64,000 bases of DNA from Takakia lepidozioides (taxonomy: Eukaryota > Plantae > Bryophyta), in contig CM060733.1 in NCBI GenBank assembly GCA_030704615.1, positions 18,538,001 to 18,602,000 of the forward strand, given 5' to 3'. Positions within the stretch are counted from its first letter, which is position 1; each line of letters begins with the position of its first letter. Below, piece after piece: positions 8,031 to 51,518 of this stretch. Below the pieces are notes generated by a model that was not told the DNA's origin, searched no databases, and saw only the letters and a list, made by a program, of their open reading frames with translations. Made by a program: the position numbers and the translations under genes.

Positions 8031-8899
8031 GGCCTGGAAAACCCGGCCTAGGGTTTTGCGGAGAACCAGCAAGAGGGTGTCTGCACCTGCACCTGCAGCA
8101 CATATATACTCAAAAATTTGCAAGGTTTCAGGTCGTGTAGGTGTCACGAAGAAGACAATATAAGTCTGCAATTCCTCTGGTAGCATTGTCCCTTTCTGAA
8201 ATACAGTCCGCAATGGACTCATGCATTCTCCCAACGGACTCCTCCAGTCTCCACAATCCCAGCACACTCCGGCACAAACTCCCATCAGACAGCTGCAGAG
8301 TCCCACAATGGACTCCTACACAGTCTCCCAACGGACTCCTACACAGTCTCCCAACGGACTCCTCTAGTCTCCCAACTGACTCCCACATAGTCTCCCAACG
8401 GACTCACGCACAGTCTCCCAACAGAGTCACAGTCAGCAGACTGCGAACGCCAGTAAGCCAGTCTGCTGGTCAGTCTGCTGCCCAATTCGCTGTCCACTCC
8501 GAACGTCTGCTCACCACACTTCCACCTCATCCCTGCAACTCTCCCAACAGACTGTTGGACAGACTAAGTCTCAAACAGACTCATCCACAAGAGCAGACTC
8601 AAAATGGACAGGCTCCAGTGGACTACCTCCCTAACGACTCATGCCAATCCAGCGTCCCAGCAGACTCATGGACATAGTGCCTACCAGACTAGGTACCAGA
8701 CTAGGTACCAGACTAGGTACCAGACCCACAAGTCCTAGCCTCGGCAGCATACTGCTTGCACATTCAAGCTCAGCAGACTCGGGTGCACAGTGCATAGAAA
8801 AATTGACACCATTGTGTCCATTGAGTTTAGTGACAACATTACAAAACATGCAGCACCCACAGTACACAAAAGTGCTCATCACCACTGGAATAGTAAGCG

Positions 8900-11800
8900 A
8901 AAAGACTCGCATTTTTTATTTCAGTACATAGACTTCACAGGACAAGTACATCATACTCATGAGAGCAGTTTCTCTATATTTTCCAACCCCCGCACAATAT
9001 ACTGGGCACACTGCATTCGCTGCCCAAGTGCAAACTTGAAAGTAAACCAGTCCTTCGTGAAAGGTGTTCCTCTCTCTGGCTTTGCAGTCTTGGAGACATT
9101 TCCTCTGACTTTTATCCACTCATAAAACACTTGAATGAATAACATGACGTAAAAGCCACACTCCCAGCTGAATGGTGCTGGGGCACATCAGGCGTGTGGA
9201 ACTGAAATGCTTGGACAATCTCGTGCCACTCCGGTGAGTCCATCGAGTACCCTAAGCACTCAGCATGAAGCTTCCGAATGCACCCTAAAACAAATGGACA
9301 ACTATGCGAGTCCTTGATAGAGTTAAGGTGAGTGTAACAGTCATTGCGGAGGTCGATGATACAAACACTCCAGTTCCCCTTGCAATGGTATCAAACAACA
9401 TGGCGTCATTGCACAATCATGATGGGCAGACTCAGCAGACTGACACTCAGCAGACCGACCACCAAAATGAAATCGCACTCTTTCAAGTCCTTGCCCAGTC
9501 GTTCAGTGCTAAGGCAACCTTTGAAGACCTCCAAAAGGCTTGCATGTTGCCCCACCCCCAATGACTTCAACACCGTCCACGTCGTCGTTGGAAGAACAAC
9601 AATAGTGTTGGTGAACGCAGCCTCAACCGACTTCTCATATAATCGACACCACAGCTCCAGGAGTCTATCTGTGCACTCCAACTCAACCTTCTGGAGCGCC
9701 TTTATGTCATCCGGCGACAGTCCGCATTCAAACCGTGGGTCCCCTTCAAAAAACATCAGCATGGAATTACTCGCCTTGACGTGCAGAGCATGTGCTTTGC
9801 CAAACCGAGCACCCATCCTGCACAGAGCAGACCATCCTTCGGGAAGCCTCATGTACTGAACAGACTGACGTCAACATGGTACCAAACACTCTATAGGCTG
9901 AACAGTTCATCAGCAGACTGACAAAACTAACCACAACAGACAATGATGACAACCAACAGCAGACTGACTAGCCAGCAGACTGACCACAACAGATTGCAAA
10001 GCACTTAACGACAAAGACAGACGAGGAGACTGAGCACAGTACTCACCTGTGCTGCTCCAGGAAACGACCCACATCTTTGTCCATGTCCAAGGCCAGCTTG
10101 CGGTTCTTGTTCATAAAGACGCCAGATTTTTTCTTCGCCGATCTCTTGGTACTCGGACCCTCCTCGACCTCCTCAGCATGGTCCACGACAGTCCGCTTCT
10201 TGGCTTTGCCTCTCCCCTGGGAAGTAGGGACAGCTGTAGGCGGGCTGGATAGAGCAGACAAACGCAGCGCTGCCGCCCTACTTCGCAACAGAGGCTGGTC
10301 AGCAGGTTTGTTTACACTTGCTGGACCTGACTTTGCAGCTTTGTGGGTTGAACTGACCCACGCATTGGGGGGCGTGCTCACCCCCACACCTTTCTTGGTT
10401 GTCGATCCCACGTTTGCAGCATGGGCGGAAGATGTCATGTTCTCAGAAGTAGACAGTCTGCCGACGGAGGGACGAACATCCTGTGAGGATACCGAGCAAA
10501 ATGGCGAATTAGCCCAATTTCACAATGTGCTAAAACATAAACAACAGTGCTGAAAGAGGAAATGGCACAACCTGCCCAAGGGGTGAGGGAGTAGACTCCA
10601 TGTAATCCAGCGCTATACCAGACGATGTCTGCGCCGCATGTGGTTCCTCGTCAGTGTGTATGCCTACATGTTCAGTCTGTTGCACAATGTGGGCAGTCTG
10701 CTCGGCCGCCGGTTCTTCGTCAGTCCTTTCAACTATTAACTGTGCAGTCTGCTGGCAACTCTGCGGTTTAGTCTCTTCCTCAATGTGGGCAGTGTGCTCG
10801 GTGGCAGGTTGGTCATCAGTCCTTCCCTCTGTGAAGTGTGCAGTGTGCTGGTCAGGCCGTGCAGTCTGAACTGTGCAGTCAGAGCTGAGCTGTGCAGTCT
10901 GCCGCTCCGAGCCATCCTGGTCAGTCCTTCCCTCTGTGACCTGTGCAGTCTGCGGTTCACTCTGCTCATCAATAAAGACAGTCTGCTGCCCCGCCACAGG
11001 TTGCTCGGCAGTCCTTCTATGTGTCGACTGTTCAGTGTAATGGTCAGTCTGGTGGACAGCCGGCTGGGTGTTCGGATCTCCATGGACTTGGAAAACATCA
11101 AAAACATGTATGAAAGACCCACCGGCAATTGCTTCCTCAGACTCTTCTGTAAGATCTATGATACGGTTTTGCGTTCCCAGATTGAGTTCGGTCATCACGT
11201 AAGACTCATCTATGGCTTTCGCCACTGTGCGCATGAAAACGGGACTGAGTTTTAAGGTCATAGAAGGCAGGCCACGGGTAGCTGGATAAGAATGCTTTAC
11301 CGGTGACCTGATGATGTCGTCAGTGAATGTACATGGGGGAAAAGTGGACTCGGTCAAAACACTCATACTGGCAGATCCAAAAACATGTTGTTGGGAACTC
11401 AGCAGAAATTCATCTACAGGGTCCCGGTGAGGCCAGTGCATCCGAGTCTGTTGCACAATCCAGGGAACATACTGGCTGTTAGTCTCCTAGACAGTCTGCT
11501 CGGCCATCTGCTGAGTGAGTTCGCCAGTGTGCTGCACAGTCTTCTGAGGGGCAATCTGTTGGCTGGATTTGTCGGTTTGCTGCACGGTTTGCTGAGGGGC
11601 AATCTGCTGGCTGGATTGGCCGGTTTGCTGCACAGTCTGCTGGCCATGTTCGCTGGTCTGCTGCATAGTCGGCTGAGGGGCAGTCTGTTGGCCGGTCTGT
11701 TCTCCGGTCTGCTGCAAAGTCTGCAAAGTTTGCTGCCCGCTCAGTACTGTTTGCACATACTGAGTATGTGTGTGCGGGGCAGTCTGCTGGGAGTGATCCG

Positions 11801-16399: not shown

Positions 16400-17960
16400 A
16401 TGAATTAACTGCAGACATGGGGCAAGGCTCTGATACGGCCAGAGGGGAAGATTCAGACCCTGTTAGGGTTCAGCAGGAAGAAGAACGAACTGGTGACAAC
16501 AGCACCATGGAAGTAGAGTGGATACAGGTTGATTTGTCGAGCCTGAGACCACTAGGCAAGGCATCAGAAGGCCCAAACGAGGAACACTGTGCAAGATCTG
16601 TAATGACTTGAGATACAATCGTCACACACTAACCCAACATAGGTCTTGGCAAACTCTCAGCAATGCTGAAACAATCACGAAGGCAAAGGAAGAGGCACAG
16701 CCTCATGGGAAGATGTATGGAGTACCTTTTTGCAGCGATCTTGATGAGTATGTGGAAGGAGGAGAAACTGATCCACTGCCAAGCACGGAGTACATGATGC
16801 AACCAACAGCACGGGTGTCATGTCAATTCACTGATACTGAGCTGGAGGCACTCAATGAACTAGACGAGATGTACCATAAGTGGTCATACTCAAAGAAGAT
16901 TGCAGCAGCACCCCACATCAACATGTTGACACGGGGAAGTGCGAAGAAGGCCAAATTGGGAGATGGAATGCCTATTTTGCAAAAATCCAAACAAAAGATT
17001 AATGATTTAAGTCAAGAACATGGATTTGGTGGAAAGGAGCACGTTGGCATGGACAATATCTACAGCAACTAGAGATATTCATGGAAGGATTTGACAAGAG
17101 CGAAGAAGAGGCTAGAACCCAGAGTCTAGATGCATTCATCGAAGACTGGGCAGACCAATAGATAAAAGAAGATGGAGAGTGAGCTAAGTGAGAAAATTGA
17201 GCAGGAAAGGGTGAGACCTTTGACAAAGAGAGAACAACTGGAGCTCATTCAAAGGGCAGAGGACGAACATGACAAAGCAGAAGGTGATGAAAGAGAATAC
17301 ACACCAACTGTTCATGAAGAGACAACACCAGACATCCTGAACGACGTTCAAGTAATGCCTTACCTTACGTTTGGCTCTGTCAACGAGTACCTTGACCTAA
17401 ATGAAAGAAAACGGGTGTTGAAGAGAGCCAGAGGCTATGTATAATGGGAAGGCAAAATTTTATACAAGGGCAAGCACGTACTTGAAAAGAAGGAACGATT
17501 GGGTATCATAGAGAGGATCCACCAAACTTTGGGTCACTTTGGGGTACACAGAACTCAAGTTGAAGTGTGCAAGCGCTTCTTCTGGCATAACCGCACTCAG
17601 GAGATAAGAGACACATTGAAGAAGTGCCTACCCTGTCAACAAGGGAAAACACTGGGAAGCCTTAGGTCTGGAGCAAAGAGGTTGAAAACCGCACCAGCAG
17701 CTTACCTGTTTTACAAAACCATATTTGACATTTACAGAGCTGGTATTACCGGAGACAAATGAGAGCAACAAATATGTGCTTATGGCTATTGATCCCAATT
17801 CTAAACGAATGATAGCAGCACCGGTGAGTGACAACTCAGCAATGATGGCAGGGCCGAGATTCCTGGAGAAGAAAGTTATAGTCCGCTCTGGAGCACCGAA
17901 GATAGTGCTTACAGATCAAGGCACTGAATGGGGCAACCTACACCAACGCTTCAAACCAAG
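16400..17960 (+). mobile_element. Degenerate Ty3/gypsy pol fragment (integrase zinc-binding domain and part of the DDE core)
   Basis: HQTLGHFGVHRT...FFW...CLPCQ; NKYVLMAID..SK; GAPKIVLTDQGTEW; stops and frameshifts; truncated. Confidence 0.8.
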
Positions 17961-18609
17961 CCCTAGTCCTTCGGGTTTTTTTTTTTTTTTTTTGGGAAGG
18001 CCCGAGAGAGGCCGAATTTTATTTTTCAAGAAGGATGAGGAAAAAATAACCTCAAATACAAGCCGTGAAGGCAGAGGAAGGGGACTCCGCCCTGGCTTCT
18101 TGATTTTGAAAAAACCTTTGACAAGGTCGACTAATATTTCCTTTTGATTGTCTTAAGGAAAACAGTTGTCCCTGAGGGTTTCTGCCAATAGGTGGAAATT
18201 CTCTTCTTTGATTCCTCTTGTACGGTAAAAATCAATGGGCGCCTCTCATTATAGAGTAATAGCATCTTAGGGTAATAATCCATAAACGCCTCTAGTTTTA
18301 GATTAATAGTGTTTTGAATTCACACGCTTAAGGCCCATTGGCCCCGCTAGGTACAAAGAAAGGCTCACCGGTATCGTGCCTGGCCCAGGATATGCCGCCG
18401 CCATCCCGCGGCGCCAAACCTTCCTTACTGAAGCCTTATCCCTGCGGTAGACCCTCATAACCAAGGGTTTGCCGCCTTATCCCTACGGTAGACGGTAGAC
18501 CCCCCTTACCCCGCATAATCTGTCATGAGACTTAGAGTTTTTTTTTAGTTTCTCCAATTCCAAAAGTTCTTATAAAATGTGACATATTGCAGACTCCCTG
18601 AGAATTAAC

Positions 18610-21659: not shown

Positions 21660-22740
21660 GATCAGGTGCCTAATCGTGGACCCGTTAGACTTGTGATGAG
21701 GCTATGTTTACTCTCAGAGAGAGAGAAGACTCCGGCCGTAGCCGGCGTAACTAAGAGCCACTTCGCCTTGCGGCTACTGCCCCCTTCGGGGGTGGGCCCT
21801 ATAAAAGGAAGGGTGTCCTGTGGGACACCAGGTAACCGAGGAGAGAGAGGGAGGGGGGTTGCTATGAACCCCCTGTTCCCAGGGGGGACCCAGGGTGCAC
21901 TAGAAGGGCTAGCTTCGAGTTGGCGTTTGTTGGTGATAATGGCTGTAAGGGAGCGGAGTGCTGTAAGATGGATTGCTTTGAAGCATTGATGGATTGGGAA
22001 AATGGGTGTTTTGAAGTTATCATGTAAATCATTGATACTGGCGTTGTGTATGCCGCCCCGGGTTCCGGCAGTGACGACTGTGAGGGGGCCAGTCTTCCAT
22101 CCTTGTCGACAAATTGCAAGAATGAGTGGGGCATATTTTTGTCGTTTTAAAAAAGATTGAATCGTTGGGGTATCGATCGTGGTAGAATGTAAACTCAATA
22201 AAGTGGATGATGAACTGTGGGGATGGTGAGGTAGGTGATGAGGCATTAACGGGTAGTCCCTGGATGCATAGCCGGGTAGGGCATGAGCAGGGTGCTCGTG
22301 TGCATGTGCATGGTAAAAGTCATGGCGGCACAGTGTGATCTGGTGGCCTCCCTTGGAAGATACTGGGTGAACCATCGGGTTTCGGCGCGTTTTGTGAATA
22401 GTTTGTGGAGATGCCAGACTGCTTGGTTGTGTCGAGTGATATGAAGACCATGGATGACCAGATGCGTGCATTGGCTCAGGATGTGCGACCAGGTATCACG
22501 TGCATTGTGGGTTGTGGAGCACAGTGGGCAGTAAGGTGATGGAAAAAAATGTGGCTAGAAAATGTATTGGGCATATCTAAATTTGAGTGTCTGGCATATT
22601 TGTGCGTCAGCGGTAGCTTTGGTTTGCCATAAGTGGTTCGAGAGTTTGTGGTGTAGTACTTCGGATTGGGTCCATTTTTAAATATGTACTTTGGTATGAC
22701 TGATAGAGGCTGCAGCTTGTTTGTTTGCTTCACGAGTGAG
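21660..22740 (-). mobile_element. 3' relic of a non-LTR retrotransposon with a restriction-like endonuclease (RLE) domain
   Basis: LCIQGLP...HFIEFTFYHDR...KYAPLILAICRQGWKTGPLTVVTAGTRGGIH resembles the PD..E..D / K.Y..L....GW...G.RG signature of RLE LINEs. Confidence 0.55.
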
Positions 22741-22830
22741 GGCTTTACGGCTTTAGTTTAGTCATTGCAAGAGGTTTAGGCTACTTCAAGGCAAGCTCAG
22801 TGGCCCTTTTTCCTTCATGAGAATCCGAGA

Positions 22831-22877
22831 TACACGGTAGCTTAGTTGGATAGAGCACTATGTTCCACCCATGTGAT
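22831..22877 (+). mobile_element. 5' half of a tRNA-derived SINE-like sequence (A box) split by the gypsy insertion; 3' half at 35320-35390
   Basis: GGTAGCTTAGTTGGATAGAGC...TGAT | TGATTCTGGTTTCAAATCCTGCTAC; the rejoined sequence aligns with the intact copy at 38121-38245(-). Confidence 0.7.
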
Positions 22878-22964
22878 TGTCGTGCGCATACATATCGCTA
22901 CACAACTACATCGCTGTCCAAACCACACCACACATATATGCACAATAAAGTAGTCTACCACAAT
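22878..22964. repeat. Terminal repeat block A, copy 1 (87 bp)
   Basis: Identical by eye to 23323-23409. Confidence 0.95.
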
Positions 22965-23320
22965 GATAACCAAACTAGATAAGGACACACACTCTCAACA
23001 CAAGAAATATGCAATCCCTCAACATCACTCTTTAAGATAATAGTCGAGCCAGGGGCACCCCAAGCTATGGGGACTCCACCCCACAACAACCTACACTCCC
23101 ATCATAAGCACACTCAGATCTGAAGAATGCAGGAGCTCGGTCGCGCAGGCTCAACTCGAGAGAGATGAGCTGCGCGACTGCCGCTCTCGTGAAGATAAGA
23201 CGGACCAGGTGTCAAACTAAACTTGACACCTGATTTAACACTTGACCTAAATCCAAGTGTTAAATACAAATAACTAGTTTTATTCTAGCTGTTTTCACAC
23301 TGTGCTTATTTAACTTGACA
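22964..23320. repeat. Terminal repeat block B, copy 1 (357 bp)
   Basis: Matches 34963-35319 with one substitution seen (TATTCTAG vs TATGCTAG). Confidence 0.95.
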
Positions 23321-23322
23321 GC

Positions 23323-23409
23323 TGTCGTGCGCATACATATCGCTACACAACTACATCGCTGTCCAAACCACACCACACATATATGCACAATAAAGTAGTC
23401 TACCACAAT
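23323..23409. repeat. Terminal repeat block A, copy 2
   Basis: Identical to 22878-22964; separated from B1 by GC. Confidence 0.95.
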
Positions 23410-23420
23410 CGCCCCCCTAG
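23410..23420 (-). promoter_or_regulatory. Polypurine tract of the DNMT-gypsy element
   Basis: Minus strand CTAGGGGGGCG-AT-TGTGGTAG, downstream of the integrase stop. Confidence 0.7.
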
Positions 23421-23666
23421 CTGGTGGATAGGTCCCTCTACCTCCAGATAGCTACAAGATGTAATAGCCACAGCCGTACTAAGTCCTCTATCACTGTCTT
23501 TATCGTGCTCAAACTCTATAACCAAGAGGCCGGGTACAAGAGTAGCCCCATCGTTAGTCGCCGTCTTGCAATCTGTGAACTTGAGCCAAGATCTCGTGTG
23601 TTCAAGGTCTCCTAGTAGCTGGGCCTTGCGTTTCTTGTTAGCCTTCCATGGTTGTATCCACTCCCA

Positions 23667-24950
23667 CTATCCAATGCAATGTGGACATAACCAATCCCCA
23701 TCCGGAACCATCTCAAGAGGTGGAGTCAAGCATCCCATATGCCAACCTCTAGAGCACCGATCACATACCAGCATGGTGGCTGCCCCTTTAGCAGACCCAC
23801 ACAACATGCACCTCAAACCTGCAGATACCACTGCCAGGTTTGGGTCAATCCTGCCATCGACATTCGGAAGGTGACATGGCGCACAATTACGCACATGGTC
23901 CTTCCAAGTGATGCCATCCCGACCCTCCAAGACCAAGACGCCTGAGGGCAAGACCTCTCGAACCCTCAAAATAACACGTCCTGCAGTCACATCCAGGGTC
24001 GTAGGAGCAGTCTGCTGCAGATAGACATAGTCACCAGGGTTGAATCTCCGAACCCCAGGACGATAGCCCCCACCACGTATGGTAGCATACCTCAACGTAT
24101 CACGGTGTTGTGCAATGGCAAGGTTCTCGAAAGCCATGGGCATGACTCTCTTGAACAACTCTGCACGCTGCTCACATGCACGTGCCCACACGTCCGGATC
24201 GTCAAGGTTAAGAACTGTAGCAGCTTCTCTGCGAATGGATGTAGGCAAATCCGGCTCTCGGCCAAAGAGAAGAAAGTATGGTGAGAAGGAGGCAAGTGAT
24301 GCTTGCTTGCTGAACCTGTAGCCCATGGCTAACCAGGGTAACTGAAGGTCCCAATCTCCTAGGTGTCCCTTCTGCAAGCCATACTTGCGCAAACCCCTCT
24401 TTACTGTCTGAACAACTCTCTCTGCCAAGCCATCGGCTTCAGGATGATCCCGAGAAGTGGTGCGGTGGTCTATCAAGGCCTTGTCACACAAAGCCTGAAA
24501 CTCCCCAAGAACTCTCTCCCTTGGTCCGTGAGTACCTCAGCTGGAGCACCGAATCGGCTAAGCACACAATCCAGGAATGCATACGCAGCTCCCTCACTAG
24601 CCTTATCAGGCAATGGAACCAATTCAATCCACTTGGAGAAGTGCTCCACCATCACCAACACGTACTTGTTGTGGCGCATGGTCAGTGGCAACGGCCCTGC
24701 GAAGTCAAGACTCCACCTGTAGCCCAATCCCATGATCGGAAGAGGTTGCAATTGTGGAGTAGGGGCGTTGAATGAAGCACGCACCCTGTCACACACCATG
24801 CACCTAGCCACAAATTGTTGCACCTCTGTGTGCATACCACGCCACCAATACTGCCCCTGCAGTAGACTATGAGTGCGTCGCACCCCAAAATGCCCCAACT
24901 CCTCATGGGCATGCCGCACTAACCGTGCCCGCTGTGTTGGGTGAGGCACA
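23667..24950 (-). CDS. Integrase (HHCC, DDE core) with C-terminal PHD finger; one frameshift near 24490
   Basis: HAHEELGHFG...CMVC; SLDFAGP; LTDQGREF; DGLAERVV; SPYFLLFGR; PHD CMLC...CDRC...HMGC...CPHC. Confidence 0.93.
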
Positions 24951-25299
24951 ATCCTCACTCGACCATCCTCCCACACTCGGAGCAGGTGTGTCCCCTCCCA
25001 CCTGAACCTCTTGGCTCGTTGTAGGATCCGATCCCTCTCCTTGGCAGTCATAGTGGCTGCCGTGTCTCCACTGCGGAGGTAGTCCAACACAACTGAATCC
25101 TCATGTATATCTTTGGCGCCACCCTGCTCATTGCTGGCCTCAGGGTCCTCAGACACTTGATCTACAGTCATCCCTGTTGTAGGTCCAACCTGGCCTTCCG
25201 CTGCCAAGATACACAGAAATGCAGATGCATGCCATCCGGGCACCATCTCCTCGTCCGTCTCACCATGCCACCGAGCTCCAGTGTCATCCTGCTGGCTCG

Positions 25300-26800
25300 T
25301 GCATGGATTGCGACTCAACCCATCTGCATTTCGATTGACCAAACCCGGTCGATGCACCACCTGAAAGTCATACTCTTGAAGGATGAGTGCCCACCGTGCA
25401 AGCTTCCCCGTAAGCTTGTCTGACTCCATCAACCACTTGAGTGGTTGGTGATCCGTGACAAGGGTGAAGAGATTGCCGTATAGATAGCACCTGAAGTGTG
25501 CCACGGCCCACACTGCAGCTAAGCATTCTCCCTCATATGAGCTATACTTAGACTCTGCAGCATTGTTCGAGCGGCTAGCATAAGCCACTACGAACTCTCT
25601 TCCCTCATCATCCACCTGTGTGAGCACCGCTCCAAGCCCCAGCATGCTCCAATCTGTATGCAGCTGAAAAGGACGCCCCCTGATAGGTCGTCTCAAGATG
25701 GGCGCCGAGGTCAACCTCGCCTTGAGCTCTTGAAAAGCTTGTTCTTGCTCATCTTCCCACTGCCACTCCTGGTCCACCTTGGTCAGCTTGGTTAGAGCCT
25801 TTGCAATGGCACTAAATCCCTTAACAAACCGTCTGTAATAGTTGCTAACCCCATGAAAGCTCGAACTCGGCTCACATCCGTGGGGCGTGGAACCTGTGCA
25901 ATGGACTCTACCTTAGTCTGCTGTACCCCCAATCCTCCAGGATATATCATGTGACCAGATACTCAATCTGGTTGTGGAAAAACTTGCACTTGCCCGGATG
26001 TAACTTCAATCCGTGCGTCCTCAAGCGCTCAAATACCCCCTGAAGGTGTCTCTCATGCTCCTCCACCGTAGCACTAAAGATGATGATGTCATCTATGTAG
26101 CACCGAGCAAACTCCACCCCTGCTAGAATCCTGTCCATGACTCTTTGAAACTCAGCGGGAGCGTTTTTAAGCCCAAATGGTAAGAACCGCCACTGGTATA
26201 GGCAATCCTTCCCGTGCTCATTGATCCCCCAGAATGCCGTCTTTTGCTTATCCGCCTCCTTGATCGGCAACTGGTGATATCCGGATCGTAAATCCAACGT
26301 GCTAAAGACCTTGGAATGCCCAATGGCATCAAAGATCTCCTCTGGTGTTGGCATGGCATACCTATCGGACTTGGTCTGACGATTTACAGGCCGGTAATCA
26401 CCGCACATACGTCTCTCCGTCCAATTGCCATAGACATCCTTCTTAGCTGGCATCACTGTGGCTGAAGCATACTCTCCACCAGAGAGCTCCACCAAAAACC
26501 TGCCTCCCAGAGATCTTGAGTCCTCATCTGAATCAAAGACCTCTCCATGTCACTGTATCTATAGGGTCTCCGAAAGATTGGCGTGTCAGTGGCCAACTCA
26601 ATACGGATCTCTTGACCCTTCAGTGCTCCCAAGTCCTTCAAACTGAAGGCAAAGCAATTCCTGTAAGCCCTCAGGAACCGCCGTATACGTCGTCTCTCTC
26701 CTCCGGTGACAATGGGTCCAATGTCAGGCTCCCAATTGTCCTCCGTAACTGCAACCTTAAGTCCAGTGGGCTTAGAGGTAGAGGACGCGTCCCGTGGTTG
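25300..26800 (-). CDS. Reverse transcriptase and RNase H (frameshifted in this assembly)
   Basis: RMCGDYRPVN, FSTLDLRSGYHQ, LPFGLKNAPAEFQR, YIDD, KCKF; RH LHTDWS, VAYASR, YEGECLA, VTDHQPL, NADGLSR. Confidence 0.95.
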
Positions 26801-27059
26801 CTATGCTGCAACCTCTTGAGCAGTACCCCCTTCCTGCTCAGTCAATGACAAGGCCTCATCCTGCCCCATCATCTCATCATTGAGAACCTCCTCATCCATC
26901 ACAGCTGCCTTCGCTGCCAACTCCCTCTGAACCTCGAGCACCTCCCACATGTGCCATGGATGTCTACACCTCGTGGTCCTCACCGGCTCGCCCCCCTCGC
27001 TGCCTGTACCGTCTCGGTAGGCAGAGAGACCATCAAGGGAAGTGCACTCCGCACTCTAC

Positions 27060-28030
27060 GTTGCTCAGCCATAGCCAAGCTGACAATCCAGGTCAAGCAA
27101 TTGAGATCCATTGCTTGCCCCAACACCTGACGACGTGATGCCTCAGAAAGGGAAGGCACCGCCGTGGTCCCAGTGGAAAACCCCATAGCCCGCTCTCGCT
27201 CGTCGGCATTAGGCTCCACTAACTGCTGCAACTGAGCATCCCACAGGAGGCCAGGTCCACCATCCCGAAAAGCATGGGATCCTGGGAAGCTGAGCAGTGT
27301 AGGTAATGCTGCTCGTGGTTGACCCACCCTGTTGACCACTGCCAAAGGCGAACGGTCATCGTGTCTCACACGTTGAGACTGCCTTCCTGTGTCCAAAATG
27401 CCATCCACGGTGGTGTGCTGGCCGCTGCACCCCATCAAATGCACGCTTGAGCAGTGCGGGTGGCATCAAGTTAGTCCACCATAGTCGTGGACGATGAGCC
27501 CGTGACCCCACTGCAGCTGCATCCAGCAACACTGCTGACCCAAGCCACGACCGGACTTGATGCACACTGGCCATCACCCTGGCCCGAGAATCACCCATCA
27601 GTGGCACATTCTCCAAGATGTATGCGGAGATACAGCCTGATGAAGCTGCAAGTGGCGCAAAATCCGCACCATCCCAAAACAGACCCGTCCTCGAGTCTCG
27701 CAATCCATTGCCATGCCCGGCTGATGAATGCCCTTGGCAGGGCCAACCTGCCACTACCAGATCAATGGAGCCAACCCGCTCCAAATCCTGCGCCCCCAGC
27801 AACGAAATGTCTGCTGGCAAGGCCTGCTGATATCCACGAACTGCAGACACCGGCAACAACTCAGGGTGCTGCTGCACCACTGAGCAACATGGCGCAGTGA
27901 GACGCGTCGTGCAGTCTCATCCCTCTCCACATACAGGTAACGTCGAACTCGTACACCTGCCTGCAGCACTGCAGCCAATCCAGTGCTGATCCCGCCAAAT
28001 AAGTCCAGAAGGCATATGCCTTCATCCGGT
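27060..28030 (-). CDS. C5-cytosine DNA methyltransferase domain inside the pol polyprotein (DNMT3-like motif spacing)
   Basis: Motif I LLDLFGGISTG, II YLYVERD, III ADISLL, IV DLVVAGWPCQGHS, VI YILENV, VIII AHRPRLWWTNL, IX ERERAMGF, X RRQVLGQAMD across ORFs 27754-28497, 27356-27880 and 26980-27444. Confidence 0.93.
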
Positions 28031-28439
28031 CGCTGCCACACAAGAGGTGTGGTGTCCAATGGCGACAACTGAGGTGGCCCTGGTACAATCACCGCACTCT
28101 CCTCCTCTCCTGACGGTACAAAAGCTTCTACCCAAGCTTGTTGCACCCGTCCATCAGCAGCGTGCTGCAAATCCTTGCTCGTACCCCACAACGGAGTGTG
28201 AGCAACCATGGCAGGCAACTCCGCCGTACCATGCATGTCATCCTGCTCTCTGGAGGTGGCATCCTCTGCATGGGCATTGCCTTCCAGCAACTCTCCAGGC
28301 CAACTAACTGCAGCTGTGAAGGCGGCTAGTGTTGGCATCTTGCCCCGCTGGCAGCTGCAATACCCCCAATGAATGTCACAGGGAGCTGTGCACGGCGACC
28401 ATCCCCTGACTGCCATCCAGGCTGTAGGATGCTGACTCC

Positions 28440-28770
28440 TCCCAGAAATCCAGGGTGAAGCCCATGGGGTATAACACTGCCCCACCAACGAGGACATCGT
28501 AAGAGACCGCGTCTGTCACAATGGCCTTGGCTCGCATCTGAGCCATCTACAGGATGATCCGGCTGCAGTCTAATAGCCAACTGATGCCGTGTCATGCCGC
28601 GAGCCTGCTCTGATCCTCCCAGAGATGTCTGTATCTGGAAAGGACAAGGCTCCATATCCGCCTCCATGAGGCCCAAACCTGCAATAGCAGCTCTGCCCAA
28701 CATCAGTGGCTGAGCTCCTGAGTCCAACAAGACCCGCAGTGGCCGGTACTTCTTGCCTGCCGGTCCACTC
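28440..28770 (-). CDS. Retroviral-type aspartic protease
   Basis: RVLLDSGAQPLMLG active-site motif; downstream YDVLVG-like flap in a shifted frame. Confidence 0.85.
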
Positions 28771-29499
28771 AAAGTGAAAATGCCTCCCTGGTTGTCTAAC
28801 AAGACAACTCCAGGTGTCACCATGGCGCGCTCAAAGGCTGGCCTAGCTGGCAGCTCCGTCAATCTGGCAGCTGCAGCTTGCCAGGGCGCCGTGGCAGTCT
28901 TGACCCTCAAATCCGAGGATCCCTCTGCCACTACACCTTCCACTAACTCCGCAGAAGATGAAGTGACCTCCCACTCTCGCAGAGTTGCTGCTAGTCTGAA
29001 CACTGCAGCTGGTCTCACCCCGGCGTCGCAATCATGGTTGCCGAGAACAGTGGGGCTTGACACACAGAGGTGGGCCCCAATAACACACCGGCTGCACTAG
29101 CCTTGGTAGCAGGTGTCAGTGCTGCACGTGTAGCTCTCCCCAATGGCATAGTAACCTCCGCCTCGGTAACAGTCGGGCGAGAACTAGGTGCCATGGATGG
29201 CGTTGACACTGTCTCCGCCAAGGTGAATGACTGAGGCAGCCTTGCCTGACGGCTTGCCTCCCCACGTTGTGGATCCAACTCCACCTCTGCACCTCGTGGC
29301 TCAGGAACTCGTGTTGCTCCTCGAGTCACGGCTGCAGCAGACTCCACCTGCTCTAATGGTAGTGCTGCTCCGCACATGAATCCCATTCCTCCCATATCTC
29401 CTCCCTCAGGAGCAGGAGGTGGGCCATCCCGCCTGGGAGCCGGTACCGCCTGAGCTATAGCCATGGCAGCGAGCCTCTGCTCTAGCTGCTGAAGCCGAT

Positions 29500-30925
29500 T
29501 GGCCATGCCTTGGTCAACACCCTGACCTCCGCGTCCTTGGCCATGGAGGTTGCCCTTGGCCTGCACCTCGTGCCCGACCACCTCGTCCTCTTTGGGCTGG
29601 TCCACCTCGCCCCCGGCCACCATTGTTCCCTTGGAACTGGCCTGGGCGCAACTCAGGATGCAAGTCATAACACTGGGCATCTCCATGCCCATACTTGCCA
29701 CAATGCCCACACTGCAACTGTGCAGGCTGTGCTTGTGCCGGCCTTCTGCCACTCTCTGGGCAATCTCTCTTGACATGGGGTCCTCCACATGTCCAACATA
29801 TCACCCCTGGTTGCTGTTGGCCTGCAAAAGATGCCACGGGCCTCTGCACCTGAGGTCCCCTGTAAGCTCCATGGAACTTGGGCTGGGCAACCTTGCCCCC
29901 CTGACCACGCTGTTGGGCAGTCCCTTGTGCTTGTGGGCTGACAGCTGTGCCCCGTACAGGCATGTCCTTGCCAAATCCAATTGTAACAACTCGCTCCTCC
30001 ACCATGTTGAGCTCAATCCGCTCAGCCAGCAGAAACACATCTGCTAATGTGGGTTGGGCTGCTTGTAACAGGGTTGCATCTCGCACCCTTCTCTTGAGCT
30101 CCTTGTCCAGAATTCCATACCAAAACTGGATTGCCTGAGCTTCAGTAACCCCTTGGGTCACACTTATCAAGCGCCTCATACGAGTGTACGCCTCTCGCAG
30201 GCTCTCACTGGGTTTGCGCTGGAAGTCTTGCAAACTTCGCAGCTTCTCTGTCCGTACACCTTGGTAGTTCCTCCGCAACTCCTGGAAGAACTCCACCACC
30301 GGGTTGAATCTAGGCAAATGTGTTGTAGTCGTGGCAGGGAGTAGTAGCACCTTTTGAACTGGTACCACCTTCAGAAGTACCAGCACTACTTGCTCCACTA
30401 CTAGTGCTGGCAGTGGAGCTATTGGTACTGATGCAGCTACTGGTCGCGTCGTGCCTCGAGTAATGGAGACGTAGTCAGGTGACCAATACATCCTCCACTC
30501 CTCAATCTCTGCTTCATGTCCTCGCCTGAACTCGTGGTAATCGTCCATAGGCGGGCCTTCCAAATGCTGGAACAGTCCCTTCCACGCCATGAATGGGGTG
30601 AATAGCTGTGGATTGCGCATCTGCTGCAAATCACACCAGCTGTCGAACTCCTGGATAAAGTCATCCAACGATTGTGCCCACAGCTCCAGAGTACCTACGA
30701 GGCCCCTTGGTAGCTCCATACATCTCCTCCATGTCGTCCCACAACAATGGCGAATGAAAGTGCACACCTGTTGATGAAGCCTCCGAGTCTGTGTCTGACT
30801 CTACAGTAGTTGAGGGTGGCGGTGAAGGTGGTCTGAACCGAATACCTCGTCTTGTGAACCCCACTCTCACTGTACTGCTGTAGCCGTACTCCCCTCAAAA
30901 CCCTTGGGTAACTCCGTAATGACAC
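29500..30925 (-). CDS. Gag with two CCHC zinc knuckles (frameshifted)
   Basis: LDDFIQEFDSW...FQRKPSESLREAYTRM capsid-like region; CWTCGGPHVKRDC and CGHCGKYGHGDAQC; RGG-rich tail. Confidence 0.88.
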
Positions 30926-31556
30926 TCACAATGTGCACCTCCTCCACGTGACACTATAAGGCTCTAGTACTAATCTAATAGTGACACGGGTGGGCACCTG
31001 TTGCAGTCTAAGGGTCATATCCCAATGGCTCAGGGCACCTGCACCTGCATCCACCGCAAGAACTCCTATGGTTGGCTGGTCATCAACCCAGCCTCACCAT
31101 AGAAGAAACACTGGTGGTCTTGCTGGTCATCACTCCAGCCTCACCACCGACAGCATACTCTAGGATTGACCGGTGATCAAATCCGGCCTAATCCCTATGA
31201 AAGCAAGCGCCCACACAAAACCAACATGGCGCACAGTCAAGCATGCAGGTGTTGGGGGGATCCAAACACAAGAAATCAAAACATCAACACCCCCACACCA
31301 AAATCCAGCAGCAACGCTGATCCTGCAGAATATCCCAGCCCAAAACCCCGGACTGACTGGCCTCCACCAAGAGAGGCTTTGGCAACTACAAGTACAAGGT
31401 AATGAAAATAGTACAGAGATGGAGGGGAAGAATAGAAGCCCGCCCAAGCAAGATCTAATCCTGATCTATGCTATCAACTTCCAGACTTCTCTCAAAGTGC
31501 CTCGCTCTGCTTGATGGTAAGGTGTAGGAGGTATATCTATGTCCAGAAACCTGCCA

Positions 31557-32221
31557 CTAACCTTGTCCCAAGCTACAGTAGCTCGCTCTAACCAACCCTC
31601 CTCCTCTTTCTGCCAGGTAGAGACAAAGCAACACCCCTATCTCCCGCTCACTGAACACTAAAGAAAACAAAGGTAGGGTCTGATAGTCTCTCAACTCGAA
31701 AGCTTTGAGACGTTGCGGGTGTCTCTCATTGCGAATGACTGCATCGCCTTCAAACAGAACAAACTTGTCCTCGCTAATGAACCCCCGCTCGTGGTTGCCT
31801 GTGCAGAGCGTGTCCGCTGCAAACTGTCTAATTGCACAAACTTGTGCAGCTCCTGCTCCTCTGCTCCAGTACACCACGGCCTTGTGGCTGAACACCTGGT
31901 CCCCGGGGCTGTCTTTGGCTGTGTTCCAAGCCTAGCTTTCACCCACTTTGGTATTTCACCTACAGCTGCAGAACTGCTGGCTCCAACAGAGTTCTGACTG
32001 TCCAAGGCGATATTGAGGCCCTCAATGCCAACTACAGCAGTCTGTTGTCTACTGCTAATGCCTGACTCCCAGTATGCAATCAACTCGTCCAACTGTTCTC
32101 CACTCAAATCAGTCTGAGTTCCTTGGGAAACATAAATCGTGTCCCCTTGTGTGCACAGACTAAGAGAAGAGACCTGCCCTTCAATTACGTCCTCATTTCC
32201 CCCAGCCATGCAGGAGTACAT
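31557..32221 (-). CDS. Unknown accessory ORF upstream of gag (two overlapping frames)
   Basis: ORFs 31691-32221 and 31557-31895 in element sense; no recognisable motif. Confidence 0.35.
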
Positions 32222-32900
32222 CCACCAATTTGTCTCTCATATAGACCAGCACAGGTTCTAGAGACAGATTGTGGATCTTTCATGGCACACTCACACTCTA
32301 AAAATTCCATAGATTTTTAGCAGAGTCCCCAAAACAGAAACCAGGTTTAGATAGGTAGATTTCCCCTTTCTGCAGCTATCCCCCCAAAAACTGGGTCAAA
32401 CAGAGTCCATTTGACAAAGATATGATGAATTTGGCTCCAATCATTCAAATTAGATTAAAAATTTTTTTTTTTTTTTTTAAAGGTTTTCAAGTTTTAAAAA
32501 TTCAAAGTTACACCCAAAATATCTGGTAACTGGTTCCCGGTTCCCTAAGTTCTATATGGCATCCTAGGTTCCCTGGCCACGTGCCTGCTGTTCCCCTCCA
32601 TTTCATTTGAGTTCAACAGCTCACCATGCTTTGGAATCCCAACCGTCTTCTACCAAACCGTGGTGACGATGGAGTTCGTGAAGCGATCCTTCCCAGTGAA
32701 CCCTCGAGAGACGAGTCCCCTGTGCACTTGATATACACTCTCTTAATAGAGATCAAAATCAGCAAGGAGACACCATTGACGACACCCAGAGATCAGAGAC
32801 AAGTACTTGCGCAGTTCGGAGGCCACAGCATCCCCTCTGGACACTGAGCGGGGAATAGCTGCTACACAGCAGCTCAGTCTATCGTCAGCTCCTATACCTA

Positions 32901-33330
32901 CTAGCTTCCTGCCCCTGCCATAATCAAAGAGACAAGTGACACAACACCAGCTGGAACACCTTTCCTGAATTTTTGTATCGAGAGCCCATCACAAACAAGA
33001 GAAGCCCTGAAACAGCAACACCGATAGAGGACGCAAGGACAGGGTTCGAGGGCAGGTTCAGATAGACATAATAGAGGATCAGAGCTGACCCTCCCCCTGA
33101 CAGCAATGACTTGCTGCTCCCAGATTTGCAAATCCGATCACTCCTCCCAGACCAACAAGGACTGCATACGCCAAGGTCAGCCTCTGCGACATAGACAGCT
33201 TCATCTTTCCGTCACCACTTCCCTCTTCCTGTCCTCCCTCACCACCGTTCCTGTTGCCTCCATTGCCCGACACTTGGGTTACATGCTCAGCCAGACCTTC
33301 AAAAACCTGGCCCAAAATTCACTGGCTGCT
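32901..33330 (-). pseudogene. Captured fragment of a plastid fatty-acid export FAX / TMEM14 family gene
   Basis: G-rich linker then MSQRLTLAYAVLVGLGGVIGF-KSGSSKSLLSGG.SALILYYVY.NLPSNPVLASSIG...VMGSRYKNSGKVF-AGVVSLVSLIM; frameshifted. Confidence 0.85.
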
Positions 33331-34155
33331 CGGACACTGACATGACCAAACCTCTTTAACTCCAATCAGCCTGCTGCTGAGTTACGATCATCACCAAGCA
33401 AAATCTATCCCAATGCCCAGTTGAGCTGCCAGTCTCGCATTCACTTTCCCCACCAAGGCAGCTGCAATACACTGACTGTCTTAGCTCCCTCCATGACAAC
33501 CTCCCGCATTTGGGCAAGTTCAGCTTCACGGACCTCCCAGCGACTTAGCAGCTGCTTCAGGTCATGGTCCTAGCTAGCGCATGCTGGGCTGCAACCAGTT
33601 GCAGATCCTTATCGTGTAGAAACCCCTTCACTGCTCTCTTTCCATCTCCTGATGCCATGCTCCATCCTCCAGCCACTTCACTTGTTTCAGGCACCCAGGT
33701 CCCTATGGGCAGGTCACATGCTCCTGTGCCAGCCAGAACAGTGACATTCGACCCCTTCGTCTTCAGGAACAAGCTGGTAGCTTCCTTGATGTCATCAGTT
33801 TCCTGGACACTTAAACGGCAGTATGGTCGCCACCTCTGATTGAGGCAGTAGTGGTGACGAAAGGAGAAGAGAACACAGGGAAAGAGCGAGGAAAAATAAG
33901 GGCGGAGAACTGCTCATGTCAAAAGGTCAAAGCCAGAGAGGTCGAAACATTGTGCGAAGGGGGACCGTGTGTTTCTGCTGCCCTCTCCCACTTCAGCGCA
34001 ACATTCAGCGTCCAGAGAGTGAAGTCCCTCAAAATTTAGAGAGTGAACCCACCGGCAACAGGAGTGCTCTCAAGCGGACATTGAGCGCCCTCCACTGACT
34101 CAGTTGAGTGTGCAAACCTTTCTGCTCATGCAGTTCCAGCAGTCAATACTCACTC

Positions 34156-34460
34156 CTAGTGATGATGATGCTCATGCCCTAGAAGACCACCCTCTCCTAT
34201 CACCTTCAACTGAAAGACTTGGCTGCAGACTGAGCATTCATACTATTTGTCCTTCTCCAGCTTGAACCATGTCACATCATGCTCATCTCACCAACACCTC
34301 CTGAGCACCCAACTATCCGCTCATCATAGTGTGACTCCACCACAATTGCAGGGGCATCCTTGGTTCCAAAGGGACCACGAGGCGGATCCAGATCAAAGCG
34401 CTTCCCACCCGAGCGCTCCGCTTCCAACTCCTCCAGCTCAACTCCTGTTCCAATTCCAAA
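34156..34460 (-). pseudogene. COX5B: Captured uninterrupted fragment of cytochrome c oxidase subunit 5b
   Basis: GTGVELEELEAE...FDLDPPRGPFGTKDAPAIV.ESHYDERIVGCSGG.GE-DEHDVTWFKLEKDK*YECSVCSQVFQLKVIG; one frameshift and one stop. Confidence 0.9.
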
Positions 34461-34946
34461 ATCGCCCGAGCTGCCTCCTGCACTTGCCAAATCACGACTA
34501 CGATGCAACCACCGCGCATATGAGAGACCCCGATGTTCTGATTACTCCGCTTGCAGTTGCGGGTTACACAGCAATGTCGGTGGAGGCACACATGGTACAC
34601 GCCTGGATGCAACCAACCGTGAGAGCCTGCATCCAGCGTCCAACATAGCGCCCCACTCCCTCTGGGCCTTGCCATCACACCACCAGCTGCCATCGACATA
34701 TCCTCCGCAGCCGGCGACGCCCTTACAGTGGAAGCACACCTCGCCAATGCCAACAGAAATATGGGCAGACCACCATTACTCTCTCTTCTACCACACCATT
34801 GCGACTGGAGATGTGAGGTGAACTCAAGCTAGAGCCGTTCTATGCTCCTTGCTTGAGCTGCGTACAAGACCATGACCATCTATATTATAATAGTGCTTAA
34901 AAAAAAAAAACATCATATCTAGCTTAGCACTGGAAAACTAGATAGT

Positions 34947-34962
34947 GCTCATCTCTCTCGAG
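34947..34962 (-). promoter_or_regulatory. Putative self-priming primer-binding site
   Basis: Immediately inside the 5' repeat; perfect reverse complement of 35154-35169 within block B; no TGG tRNA-type PBS present. Confidence 0.65.
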
Positions 34963-35319
34963 TGATAACCAAACTAGATAAGGACACACACTCTCAACAC
35001 AAGAAATATGCAATCCCTCAACATCACTCTTTAAGATAATAGTCGAGCCAGGGGCACCCCAAGCTATGGGGACTCCACCCCACAACAACCTACACTCCCA
35101 TCATAAGCACACTCAGATCTGAAGAATGCAGGAGCTCGGTCGCGCAGGCTCAACTCGAGAGAGATGAGCTGCGCGACTGCCGCTCTCGTGAAGATAAGAC
35201 GGACCAGGTGTCAAACTAAACTTGACACCTGATTTAACACTTGACCTAAATCCAAGTGTTAAATACAAATAACTAGTTTTATGCTAGCTGTTTTCACACT
35301 GTGCTTATTTAACTTGACA
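34963..35319. repeat. Terminal repeat block B, copy 2 (5' end of the element)
   Basis: 357-bp match to 22964-23320; followed by the TGAT TSD. Confidence 0.95.
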
Positions 35320-36429
35320 TGATTCTGGTTTCAAATCCTGCTACCTTGTCAAGTGTGGTATGATCTTCCCTCCTTCCCTTGGGTTGTGTCCCATGAGCCT
35401 TGTGCTTTGAAGCCTCATGACGAGGTTACTTGGAAAGAGGTTATTTTCTCTTCTCATTATACTTAAGGGGCCTGATTTGTGAGAGGTAGCTCCCCGGTAA
35501 AAAATAAATACAACCAAAAATGTTGAGAACATGCGAATACATGATATTCCACTTCTTATAATAGAATAAGAATCTTGGACTCTAAAGAGTCTAATTTAGC
35601 AATGAACTCATATTTTTTGTGGCTTTGTCTTGGTTTGAGTCAGAATCTAGCTACATCCATGACAAACTCTGTGAAAAAAAAACTAAAAGGTGGACGCGTT
35701 GCCGAAGCATGTGTAACTTATGGTGTCACTTGACCCAGAAGGGCTATTGCCTTCCGGTAGGAAGGTGGATACCTTTGTAACAACCATCATGGTATACTCT
35801 GTAATTGTGTAGTGGCTTTAAAAATTTACGATCATGTGTGGGAAAATAAAATAAAATGTGGAGGCGCTACTGAAACAAGTGTAATTATGGTGTCACTACT
35901 GCCTTCTAGTGGGAAGGTGGACACCTTTATGACATCCAACATGTGGTTTGAACCTGTAGGACTTGAGTCTTGGTGTAGGTAGTGCCCACATACTACCATC
36001 AACCCATTGCAACTTTAATTATGAGAGTAAACAACATACATGGGAGGGCCGTGGTCTCGCCCACCCTCCCTCCAGACTCCTCGCCCCGAAGCTCTTCAAT
36101 AGGCCGAATTTGCTGCGCATTCATCTCCTTGCGCTTCAACTATCCTCATCCTCACACAACAGAGAACACCTACCACCTCCCACCCACTTCTACACCTCCC
36201 TACTGGGGTCAAGCTATTAGCCACAATTGACCCAAACCAGCTTAAGTATACTCATACCCCTCCTTTTCCCAAATACCTCTAGCAGAAGGAACCTACCCTA
36301 ACCCTCATCCTGCATGTCCAAAACCCCTATCATGTTGACATACCTACACATTTCTTTCGCGAAGTAAAACATCTACTAACCATAACACAAAATAAATGCC
36401 ATCATCCACCATCCATCTACCCCTCATTG

Positions 36430-37130
36430 CACAAGCACATCTACCCCCTCCCTCGAATTAAAACAAATAAAGCCTGGATTGGGGCACTGCCGCGCCCCCC
36501 CCAGGCCACATTAGCAAAACCCCCCCCCCAATCCCCTCGTTATATATGCAAACCCACACCCTCAAGTACCCTCCTGCGAACTCTCACTACACTGATGGAT
36601 CCCTTACTAAATCTAATGCAGGCTACGGTATCTACCATGCAGGAAACAGGGAGAGGGGTTGCCCTCAGTCTCCCTGGCCTGCAACCATTCACAGGGCCGA
36701 GCTTATGGTCATCTGCGACGCTCTCCTCCTACTTGACACCTTCCCCTCATCTTCACCACACTTATCTCCTTATTCCTCATCCGCAACCACATCGCTCACC
36801 CCTCCTCTCACCACCATCATCCTAACCGTAACCTTATTTCAGCCATTGTAAATGCTGCCGTCTCTAAAAAGCACCCAACCCACCTTCTCAAAATGCTCGC
36901 ACACTGACATTCAAGGGAATGAGGAGGCCGACCTCCTTGCTCAACGTGGTGCCACCAAACCCAAAGCTAACCCCACGGACGACCCTATTCACATCGCCCA
37001 CACCCACCCTTTCTGGTTTAACACCCAATTCCGGACCTACGGCACCACAACCCATACGCAATCTCTTGGTTTTGGGGGCAAATATGCCTTTTTTGAGGCA
37101 AATTAGGAAGCAGAATATCTTCGCTCCACG
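36430..37130 (+). mobile_element. Non-LTR retrotransposon relic with RNase H domain
   Basis: HYTDGSL...AGYGIY, TIHRAELMVI, HTDIQGNEEADLLA across frameshifts. Confidence 0.7.
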
Positions 37131-37277
37131 GTGCTGGCACATTCTGCATTCCTAATCGATTGTTTGACTTTTAGCTGCACATTATGGCCTGCAGCCAATC
37201 ACAAGCCTCATAATCTGCCCCCAAAATTCCTTTACACCAGGGAATGCGCCCCCTAGTGCGCATTATGGCTCCTAGTA

Positions 37278-51339: not shown

Positions 51340-51518
51340 CCTCTAGGATGGATCTGCACCACACTCCATCCCTGGCAGCAAGACCTTTGAGTGTGTGGAG
51401 ACTGCCACACCGCCACCAAGTTCATCTCGAATGTTGTTGGGTGAGCAGTTGTTGTACGGGTGCCCACCACTTTCACCACTTCCAGGATGGGGTTTGTTCT
51501 TGTGGAGATTACTGGTGA
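51340..51518 (+). pseudogene. Isolated DYW C-terminal fragment, antisense to the PPR gene's 5' end
   Basis: [41 protein letters not shown]. Confidence 0.88.

Follow-up and report, generated by a model that had tools for sequence, protein, structure and literature searches.

Plants defend themselves against transposons mainly by cytosine methylation. What, then, does a retrotransposon in a moss do with a cytosine methyltransferase of its own, how is the enzyme made, and at which step of replication might it act? The question was raised by a first-pass annotation of 64,000 nucleotides of the Takakia lepidozioides genome (contig CM060733.1, positions 18,538,001 to 18,602,000; hereafter the window, to which all coordinates refer), which had described a Gypsy element with a C5-cytosine methyltransferase inside pol. 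On balance, and with modest confidence, we read the locus as a young Gypsy-Dnmt3 element whose first open reading frame (ORF1) encodes Gag, protease and methyltransferase (DNMT), an enzyme that is likely packaged and likely methylates the new complementary DNA (cDNA) before integration.

A Ty3/Gypsy element with a DNMT3-like domain

That the element is, in identity and anatomy, a Ty3/Gypsy retrotransposon of the Gypsy-Dnmt3 clade we hold to be practically certain. It occupies 12.4 kb of the minus strand (22878–35319) between copies of a 4-bp target-site duplication, TGAT (22874–22877 and 35320–35323), and carries its domains in the order Gag, protease, reverse transcriptase (RT), RNase H and DDE integrase, together with a polypurine tract (PPT) and a primer site. 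The RT (25950–26500, YIDD at 26099–26088; PF00078, 9e-32), the RNase H (25370–25700; PF17917, 1.4e-36), the integrase (23900–24950, with an H2C2 zinc finger, a GPY/F-like motif and D, D and E residues read from the translation; PF17921, 1.7e-16, and PF00665, 1.9e-11) and a C-terminal PHD finger followed by the ORF2 stop (23667–23830; PF00628, 6e-11) all pass Pfam, upholding the Gypsy call. Gag (29500–30732; PF03732, E 5e-4), with two CCHC knuckles read from the sequence, and the aspartic protease (28370–28790, LDSGA at ~28727; PF13650, a weak E 0.03) fall below the cut-off and are backed by homology, at 42–55% identity to the Marchantia protein P0007 (55% for Gag; tblastn to P0007 and P0016 for the protease). 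The scanned ORFs gave no match to the tyrosine recombinase of PAT/Ngaro DIRS elements, the integrase being of DDE type. Instead of the C-terminal chromodomain of Tcn1/Chlamyvir chromoviruses there is the PHD finger and then a stop, a distinction of domain content rather than of RT phylogeny. The best PDB matches of this PHD finger are CHD4, PHF12, KDM5B/5A PHD1, ATXR5 and DPF3, with UHRF1 also similar. PHD fingers of the CHD4, PHF12, KDM5 PHD1 and UHRF1 types read unmethylated H3K4. A leader with degenerate ORF remnants (30733–34946), without match to the compared loci or proteins, precedes Gag; it is 4.2 kb long in the window versus ~1.1 kb in the related locus L023.

The DNMT domain lies at 27060–28030 on the minus strand, downstream of LDSGA and upstream of YIDD. 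There, as the first-pass annotation had reported, the C5-methyltransferase motifs follow one another in canonical order: I (LFGGI, ~28002–27988), IV (GWPCQ, ~27748–27734), VI (ENV, ~27613), VIII (AHRPRLW, ~27499), IX (ERERAMGF, ~27201) and X (LGQAMD, ~27123). The longest single-frame piece (27359–27913) scores 4.6e-9 against PF00145, above the curated cut-off; the annotation had proposed this profile for the frameshift-corrected polyprotein. Its remark on a likeness to DNMT3 also stands: for the natural relative P0004, DNMT3A is the best PDB match both by sequence (6e-12, versus 1.6e-4 for DRM2 and 4e-3 for HhaI) and by fold (predicted structure of pLDDT 91.5; E 7e-20). We class the domain as DNMT3-related and non-permuted, placed between protease and RT as is characteristic of Gypsy-Dnmt3 elements, on the ranking of PDB scores by sequence and fold. 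From its motifs and fold it is a putative C5-cytosine DNA methyltransferase. Viral contigs yielded 17 loci with weak phage methyltransferase matches only, which were left out of the comparison.

In the window copy ORF1 (26801–30732) is in pieces, and its DNMT domain is spread over two frames by four breaks (~27885, 27672, 27625 and 27411). Contigs of four sequencing runs from three studies span the DNMT region, and among the 12 differences listed of 31 (window 23600–30200) they show short indels at or near several of these breaks. Most listed indels are of 1–2 letters in short single-base or dinucleotide runs, a pattern that resembles long-read consensus error, and the frame breaks look like assembly error. 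No indel separates the two copies of either terminal repeat. The annotation had allowed that the domain might prove to be out of frame; in the relatives P0007, P0346, P0361, L019, L029, L037, L039 and L044, Gag, protease and DNMT run in a single frame.

The neighbouring genes had been taken to indicate a land-plant host. The PPR-DYW gene is confirmed by Pfam and marks the host as a land plant; its best matches, at 55–57% identity to a lycophyte, are not diagnostic of a narrower position. The PAL-like and COV1-like pieces are recognized by eye only. An inverted partial copy of the DYW-coding tail flanks the intact PPR-DYW gene on its 5′ side (48737–48874 and 51383–51519), with arms at 79% and 92% that could form fold-back RNA. 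The PAL-like gene (~58760–60810, minus strand), read by eye over many frames, is either a pseudogene or affected by assembly indels. By eye, the flanks of the element at 21660–22760 (minus) and 36280–37150 (plus) have the look of LINE remnants, with zinc-knuckle-like text and an RNase H match at E 0.004. A further, decayed integrase is located at ~17330–18150, and tandem arrays with units of 10 bp and 23 bp, together with Gln-rich repeats that resemble coding sequence, are found at 9–215, 8253–8451 and 10670–11726.

Relatives in bryophytes and algae

With the DNMT piece as query, 42 longer relatives were recovered, with Marchantia polymorpha, Calypogeia fissa and Klebsormidium nitens as named hosts and Sphagnum and Coleochaete added by cluster names; relatives with an intact domain are found in Marchantia, Calypogeia, Sphagnum, Closterium and Klebsormidium. 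The model liverwort Marchantia has many annotated copies, labelled ‘hypothetical proteins’. A separate search that started from RT and made no use of the DNMT returned 155 matches, of which 120 are listed. Among these 120, the DNMT precedes RT in one ORF in 14 and lies between RNase H and integrase in 47, the protease adjoins RT without a DNMT in 4, and the remaining 55 start near RT or are unrelated and are uninformative on DNMT position. The domain can thus be lost, and the clade has two positions for it. The 47 form a sister group (P0080–P0160, L068–L085) with Haematococcus, Pleodorina and Chromochloris among its hosts, whose DNMT commonly lacks a clear catalytic PC motif and is commonly missed by Pfam. 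Two members of this plant retrotransposon clade, P0129 and P0312, are deposited under bacterial names, probably through genome-bin contamination.

Quick trees were built without an outgroup. In the RT tree (domains of 170–260 amino acids) the window falls in a clade of 17 rows (SH-aLRT 99) that also takes in Marchantia, Sphagnum-family and Coleochaete. Its nearest RTs are those of moss and liverwort elements, which makes a seed-free host likely, and this clade is nested in a 64-row group (SH-aLRT 95) that contains K. nitens P0038. The DNMT tree (domains of 250–420 amino acids, with 13 redundant or partial Marchantia/Calypogeia rows omitted) likewise groups the relatives with K. nitens elements, with weaker support. 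Both trees largely split the type with the DNMT before RT, under streptophyte names, from the RNase H–integrase type, under chlorophyte names. By BLAST the window DNMT piece matches bryophyte rows at 58–68% and P0038 at 44%.

The DNMT domain is under purifying selection between families. Comparisons between families gave dN of 0.23–0.45 at saturated dS (0.23–0.43 for the window with three lineages) and, where dS is defined, omega of 0.08–0.17, to be read as an upper-bound estimate given that saturation; the ratio near 1 that the annotation had considered was not seen between families. Within the Sphagnum family, among old copies, omega is 0.39–0.71, similar to that of other domains in decayed copies. 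Nearly all land-plant copies examined retain motifs I, IV, VI, VIII, IX and X. Contig depth summed over the element exceeds that of its flank by orders of magnitude, and the family is therefore abundant, depth being no copy number. Among the sequencing runs listed, no RNA run carrying the element was found.

An element of this kind, KnitGypsy-Dnmt3 of Klebsormidium nitens, was described by de Mendoza et al. in 2018 (PMC5890265). It shares with the window element the Gypsy domains, a DNMT3-type domain between protease and RT (P0038), purifying selection, DIRS-like repeats (noted in the legend of Fig. 4c of that paper) and a place in the same large RT and DNMT clades; the window element belongs with it, and the idea of a retrotransposon-borne DNMT is therefore already in print. 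The window element differs in its land-plant host and very high abundance, in the stop behind its DNMT, and in a palindrome, a 4-bp duplication, self-priming and a PHD finger that go unmentioned for KnitGypsy-Dnmt3 in the text of PMC5890265: Marchantia and PHD are absent from the main text, and Marchantia, target-site duplications and PHD from three supplementary text files, figures aside. In the portions consulted, a 2025 paper and a 2026 preprint call Gypsy-DNMT3 elements ‘streptophyte’ only. EpiLTRs/DAM-LTRs (bioRxiv 10.64898/2026.05.21.726589) are likewise Gypsy-like with DNA methyltransferases and a chromatin reader, but their enzymes are DNMT4-related or adenine methyltransferases and their readers chromodomains, and that preprint treats streptophyte Gypsy-DNMT3 as a separate acquisition. 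Our literature search, with most subscription journals and Repbase outside its range, found no land-plant description, which does not prove absence, and, beyond the Fig. 4c legend, no DDE element with split direct repeats. As far as searched, the additions to print are the presence and success of the clade in bryophytes, a DNMT in the Gag ORF behind a conserved stop, and an end anatomy that points to an internal palindrome.

The stop between methyltransferase and reverse transcriptase

The enzyme had been placed inside pol; the land-plant domain instead ends ORF1, with a conserved stop before RT. In the window this in-frame stop is at 26803–26801, and it is conserved in relatives. Full-length Marchantia, Calypogeia-cluster and Sphagnum proteins consist of Gag, protease and DNMT and end 72–94 amino acids past motif X, and the closest RT proteins begin where these end. 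DNMT and RT share a frame but not an ORF, unlike in KnitGypsy-Dnmt3 (P0038 and the paper, PMC5890265) and in Closterium P0130, where a single ORF covers both. Under readthrough and reinitiation alike, protease and DNMT would be made at the level of Gag, which for the DNMT we consider very probable. Tj1 also has an in-frame stop after Gag, but there the stop precedes the protease, whereas here it follows protease and DNMT (PMC4600332, PMC6317226).

For the synthesis of ORF2 we lean towards readthrough rather than reinitiation. Among the best 80 of 259 metagenome loci, 35 hold both a DNMT end and an RT start and, with the window, provide 36 junctions; TAG or TAA followed by CAA-YY in the RT frame occurs at 34 of them, representing three lineages only. 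The strict CAR-YYA context, the tobacco mosaic virus signal, is present at four junctions including that of the window, where TAG is followed by CAA CCA (26795–26803) at a likely readthrough site, and 30 of the 36 have CAA-CCC or CAA-CTC and then ATG; the L064 junction is mutated. In plants the CAR-YYA context brings about readthrough of both UAG and UAA (PMC2754532; PMC2194720). A long stem-loop predicted 3′ of the stop (26690–26792) is weakly supported, with a folding z-score of −2.4 in the window and −2.1 to +0.3 in six relatives and two-sided changes in 3 of 20 pairs.

Termination–reinitiation, an internal promoter or splicing could also yield ORF2, leaving the DNMT at the Gag level, and we rate these routes together as a serious but less probable alternative. 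They would explain the ATG three codons past the stop in the Sphagnum family and the two stops with a nearby ATG in L058, and the Tca2 element, in spite of its in-frame stop, relies on a promoter at the junction (PMC2194720). Against them, the window and L019/L087 have no ATG near the stop, conserved residues precede the first Met, GTG is the start of some ORF2 calls, and the CAA after the stop has been retained in three lineages.

Permuted ends and a proposed replication cycle

The near-identical terminal repeats of the first-pass annotation exist (356/357 and 87/87 identical positions), but they are not two ordinary LTRs, and the split direct repeats had been missed. In sense order the element reads A1 (357 bp, 34963–35319, starting TGTC and ending CA), body, PPT (23410–23421, the same tract in Sphagnum-family loci), B1 (87 bp, 23323–23409, starting at the PPT and ending GACA), GC, A2 (22964–23320) and B2 (22878–22964, ending GACA, where family depth starts). 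In place of two complete direct LTRs, its termini are A and B-GC-A-B, a DIRS-like layout. A1 and A2 differ at one of 357 sites and B1 and B2 at none; the insertion is thus young, in keeping with the recent activity that the annotation had suggested. At the B1–A2 junction stands a 10-bp palindrome, GACA-GC-TGTC (23317–23326), a likely integrase attachment site that recurs in L023, L029 and the distant L074.

Sphagnum-family loci share this end layout. The 15 loci with a complete 5′ end reduce to 12 distinct flanks, unrelated to one another, and all 12 start at A; none has B before A, although some A-B-A starts could be masked where repeats have collapsed in short-read contigs. At the 3′ side, PPT-B-GC-A-B is found in L023, L057 (with a mutated spacer) and L029 (cut by the contig end) and PPT-B in L038, L044 and L045, and no 3′ terminus among the loci examined coincides with that of A. 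Both ends are available for four insertions (window, L023, L035 and L045), each of which carries a 4-bp duplication unrelated to the junction sequence, and a different B-end flank is seen in one contig of run X7. Two candidate observations were discarded. Contigs of three runs ending at 23319 do not represent many insertions starting at A, as they end one base short and two are bubble arms of 61 nt; and the PPT-B end of L045 is not a one-LTR-circle insertion, since its 3′ flank is common to the B-A-B copy L057, so that collapse or recombination explains it. L038 and L044 are candidates for such insertions. Separately, in L035 (12389–13285; the same as L042), a complete insertion flanked by a 4-bp duplication, the 3′ part has undergone inversion and deletion and the last A connects to B via primer-site sequence; autointegration or a template switch may account for it.

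The 16 nt after A1 (34947–34962) form a perfect complement of A positions 151–166 (35154–35169), the longest match at 2000 random positions being 11 nt; they probably constitute a primer-binding site of the self-priming type, with the block in A1 as the likely primer at the transcript 5′ end. L023 and L030 have different 16-mer pairs at a like place, ~26 nt past a TATA-like box, and TATAAA lies ~26 nt upstream of the block in most Sphagnum-family copies. The complementarity has decayed to 5–10 nt in 9 of 12 Sphagnum-family copies, and in one the site is deleted. Tf1/Tj1 and the plant Tcn1 chromoviruses also have a self-priming site, but they have ordinary LTRs, no DNMT and a chromodomain where the window element has a PHD finger (PMC4600332, PMC6317226).

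Given this primer site and PPT, the LTR made by RT would be B-GC-A, and a two-LTR circle cut at the palindrome of its primer-side LTR, with loss of GC, would give the inserted form A...B-GC-A-B. The permuted ends, the palindrome and the 4-bp duplications together point to an integrase that cuts circular cDNA internally. We consider integration at the internal palindrome probable; passage through a true circle we favour by a little only. Foamy virus and HIV-1 integrases, which are likewise of DDE type, cleave palindromic CA-nn-TG circle junctions (PMC1180852, PMC1905944), but there the palindrome is the junction of RT-made ends and its use a side route, whereas here it lies inside the LTR and its use is apparently the normal route. 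Two features of distant chlorophyte-type loci hint that permuted ends are old: L074 (7511–7590) has the same palindrome 60 nt after its PPT, and L071 (9022–9909) has an LTR end joined to an LTR start, at the contig end. The Chlamydomonas element Gypsy-7a_cRei (PMC9940879), by its description alone a possible tractable relative, shows activity in laboratory strains; it carries a PHD finger, and its left LTR is without the last 8 bp of the right one.

A two-LTR circle contains two identical palindromes, yet a single permutation is seen, for which the circle model gives no reason. The single permutation lends some weight to routes that dispense with a double-stranded two-LTR circle, either a DIRS/Ngaro-like template switch copying the internal B–A junction or a cut in the left LTR of linear cDNA followed by rejoining of the leftover piece; so does the identical A-B-A-B layout of PAT/Ngaro elements (PMC7192593). 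The likeness extends, with SymbioDIRS-Dnmt3 included, to methyltransferase cargo and a proposed circular intermediate (PMC7192593; PMC5890265). PAT/Ngaro elements, however, rely on a tyrosine recombinase (PMC7192593), of which the scanned ORFs gave no match, whereas the window element has a DDE integrase, a protease and 4-bp duplications unrelated to the junction sequence, and it conserves the PPT, TG/CA ends and primer site that belong to an ordinary LTR cycle. Such routes are in our judgement plausible but the less likely account of the ends.

Anatomy and conservation are observed, and from them we infer the biochemical steps of the following cycle, with integration from a circle. The transcript would start ~150 nt into A1 and prime itself as that of Tf1 does. 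Ribosomes would mostly stop after the DNMT, with occasional readthrough into RT, RNase H, integrase and PHD finger, giving abundant Gag-protease-DNMT and rarer RT-integrase and setting many DNMT molecules beside the cDNA in the particle. RT would make a normal linear cDNA with the LTR B-GC-A, which the DNMT likely methylates de novo inside the particle before integration, so that new copies would arrive pre-marked for host maintenance methylation. The ends of the linear cDNA would then be joined into a two-LTR circle, and the DDE integrase would cut the internal palindrome after CA on both strands, with loss of the central GC and a 4-bp duplication, to leave A...B-GC-A-B, while chromatin that is free of H3K4 methylation is the likely target to which the PHD finger directs integration.

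That the DNMT methylates its own cDNA, as PMC5890265 proposed for a DIRS-borne enzyme, seems to us slightly better than an even proposition. Base composition (CpG and CHG) carries no signal: the CpG observed/expected ratio of the element is 0.5, a depletion no stronger than in genic DNA (0.32), and so gives no sign of self-methylation. The domain could have been kept for another role, methylating or binding host DNA at the target site, binding RNA or serving as a structural module of the particle. We think this unlikely, though it would accommodate the loss of the domain in some lineages, the many chlorophyte-type relatives that carry it between RNase H and integrase without a recognizable catalytic PC motif, and the Klebsormidium domain that gave no methylation in yeast, a result inconclusive according to its authors (PMC5890265). 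The retention of the catalytic and other motifs in nearly all land-plant copies argues the other way, as does the related SymbioDIRS-Dnmt3 domain, which methylates CG de novo (PMC5890265). A one-off host DNMT3 retrocopy in a dead element, as the annotation had entertained, or an assembly chimera would suit the many frame breaks of the window copy but can be dismissed, the same architecture being family-wide, in dozens of loci and several named genomes, under purifying selection and with contigs of four runs across the domain region.

A far more speculative reading, which we think improbable, joins methylation and permuted ends in one mechanism: a green-plant-wide Gypsy clade would normally integrate at an internal palindrome of circular cDNA, and a Gag-level DNMT3 would methylate the early-made strands, so that the two identical palindromes are methylated on opposite strands, which would choose one for the integrase and shield the other. 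If true, cytosine methylation would be a transposon replication signal, as in a restriction-modification system.

For annotation, programs that look for a pair of equal LTRs will overlook or mis-date such elements, which can also inflate counts of DNMT3 genes in bryophytes. The arrangement of the ends suggests an element whose DDE integrase has an internal palindrome as its normal substrate, a route that in retroviruses is a side reaction only, and with the DNMT encoded in the abundant Gag ORF many enzyme molecules per particle are to be expected. Although methylation is the plant's defence, a DNMT3 of its own has persisted in this clade from algae to mosses and liverworts, and the role of a retrotransposon DNMT, a question posed in 2018, becomes testable in Marchantia, a genetic model with methylome data.
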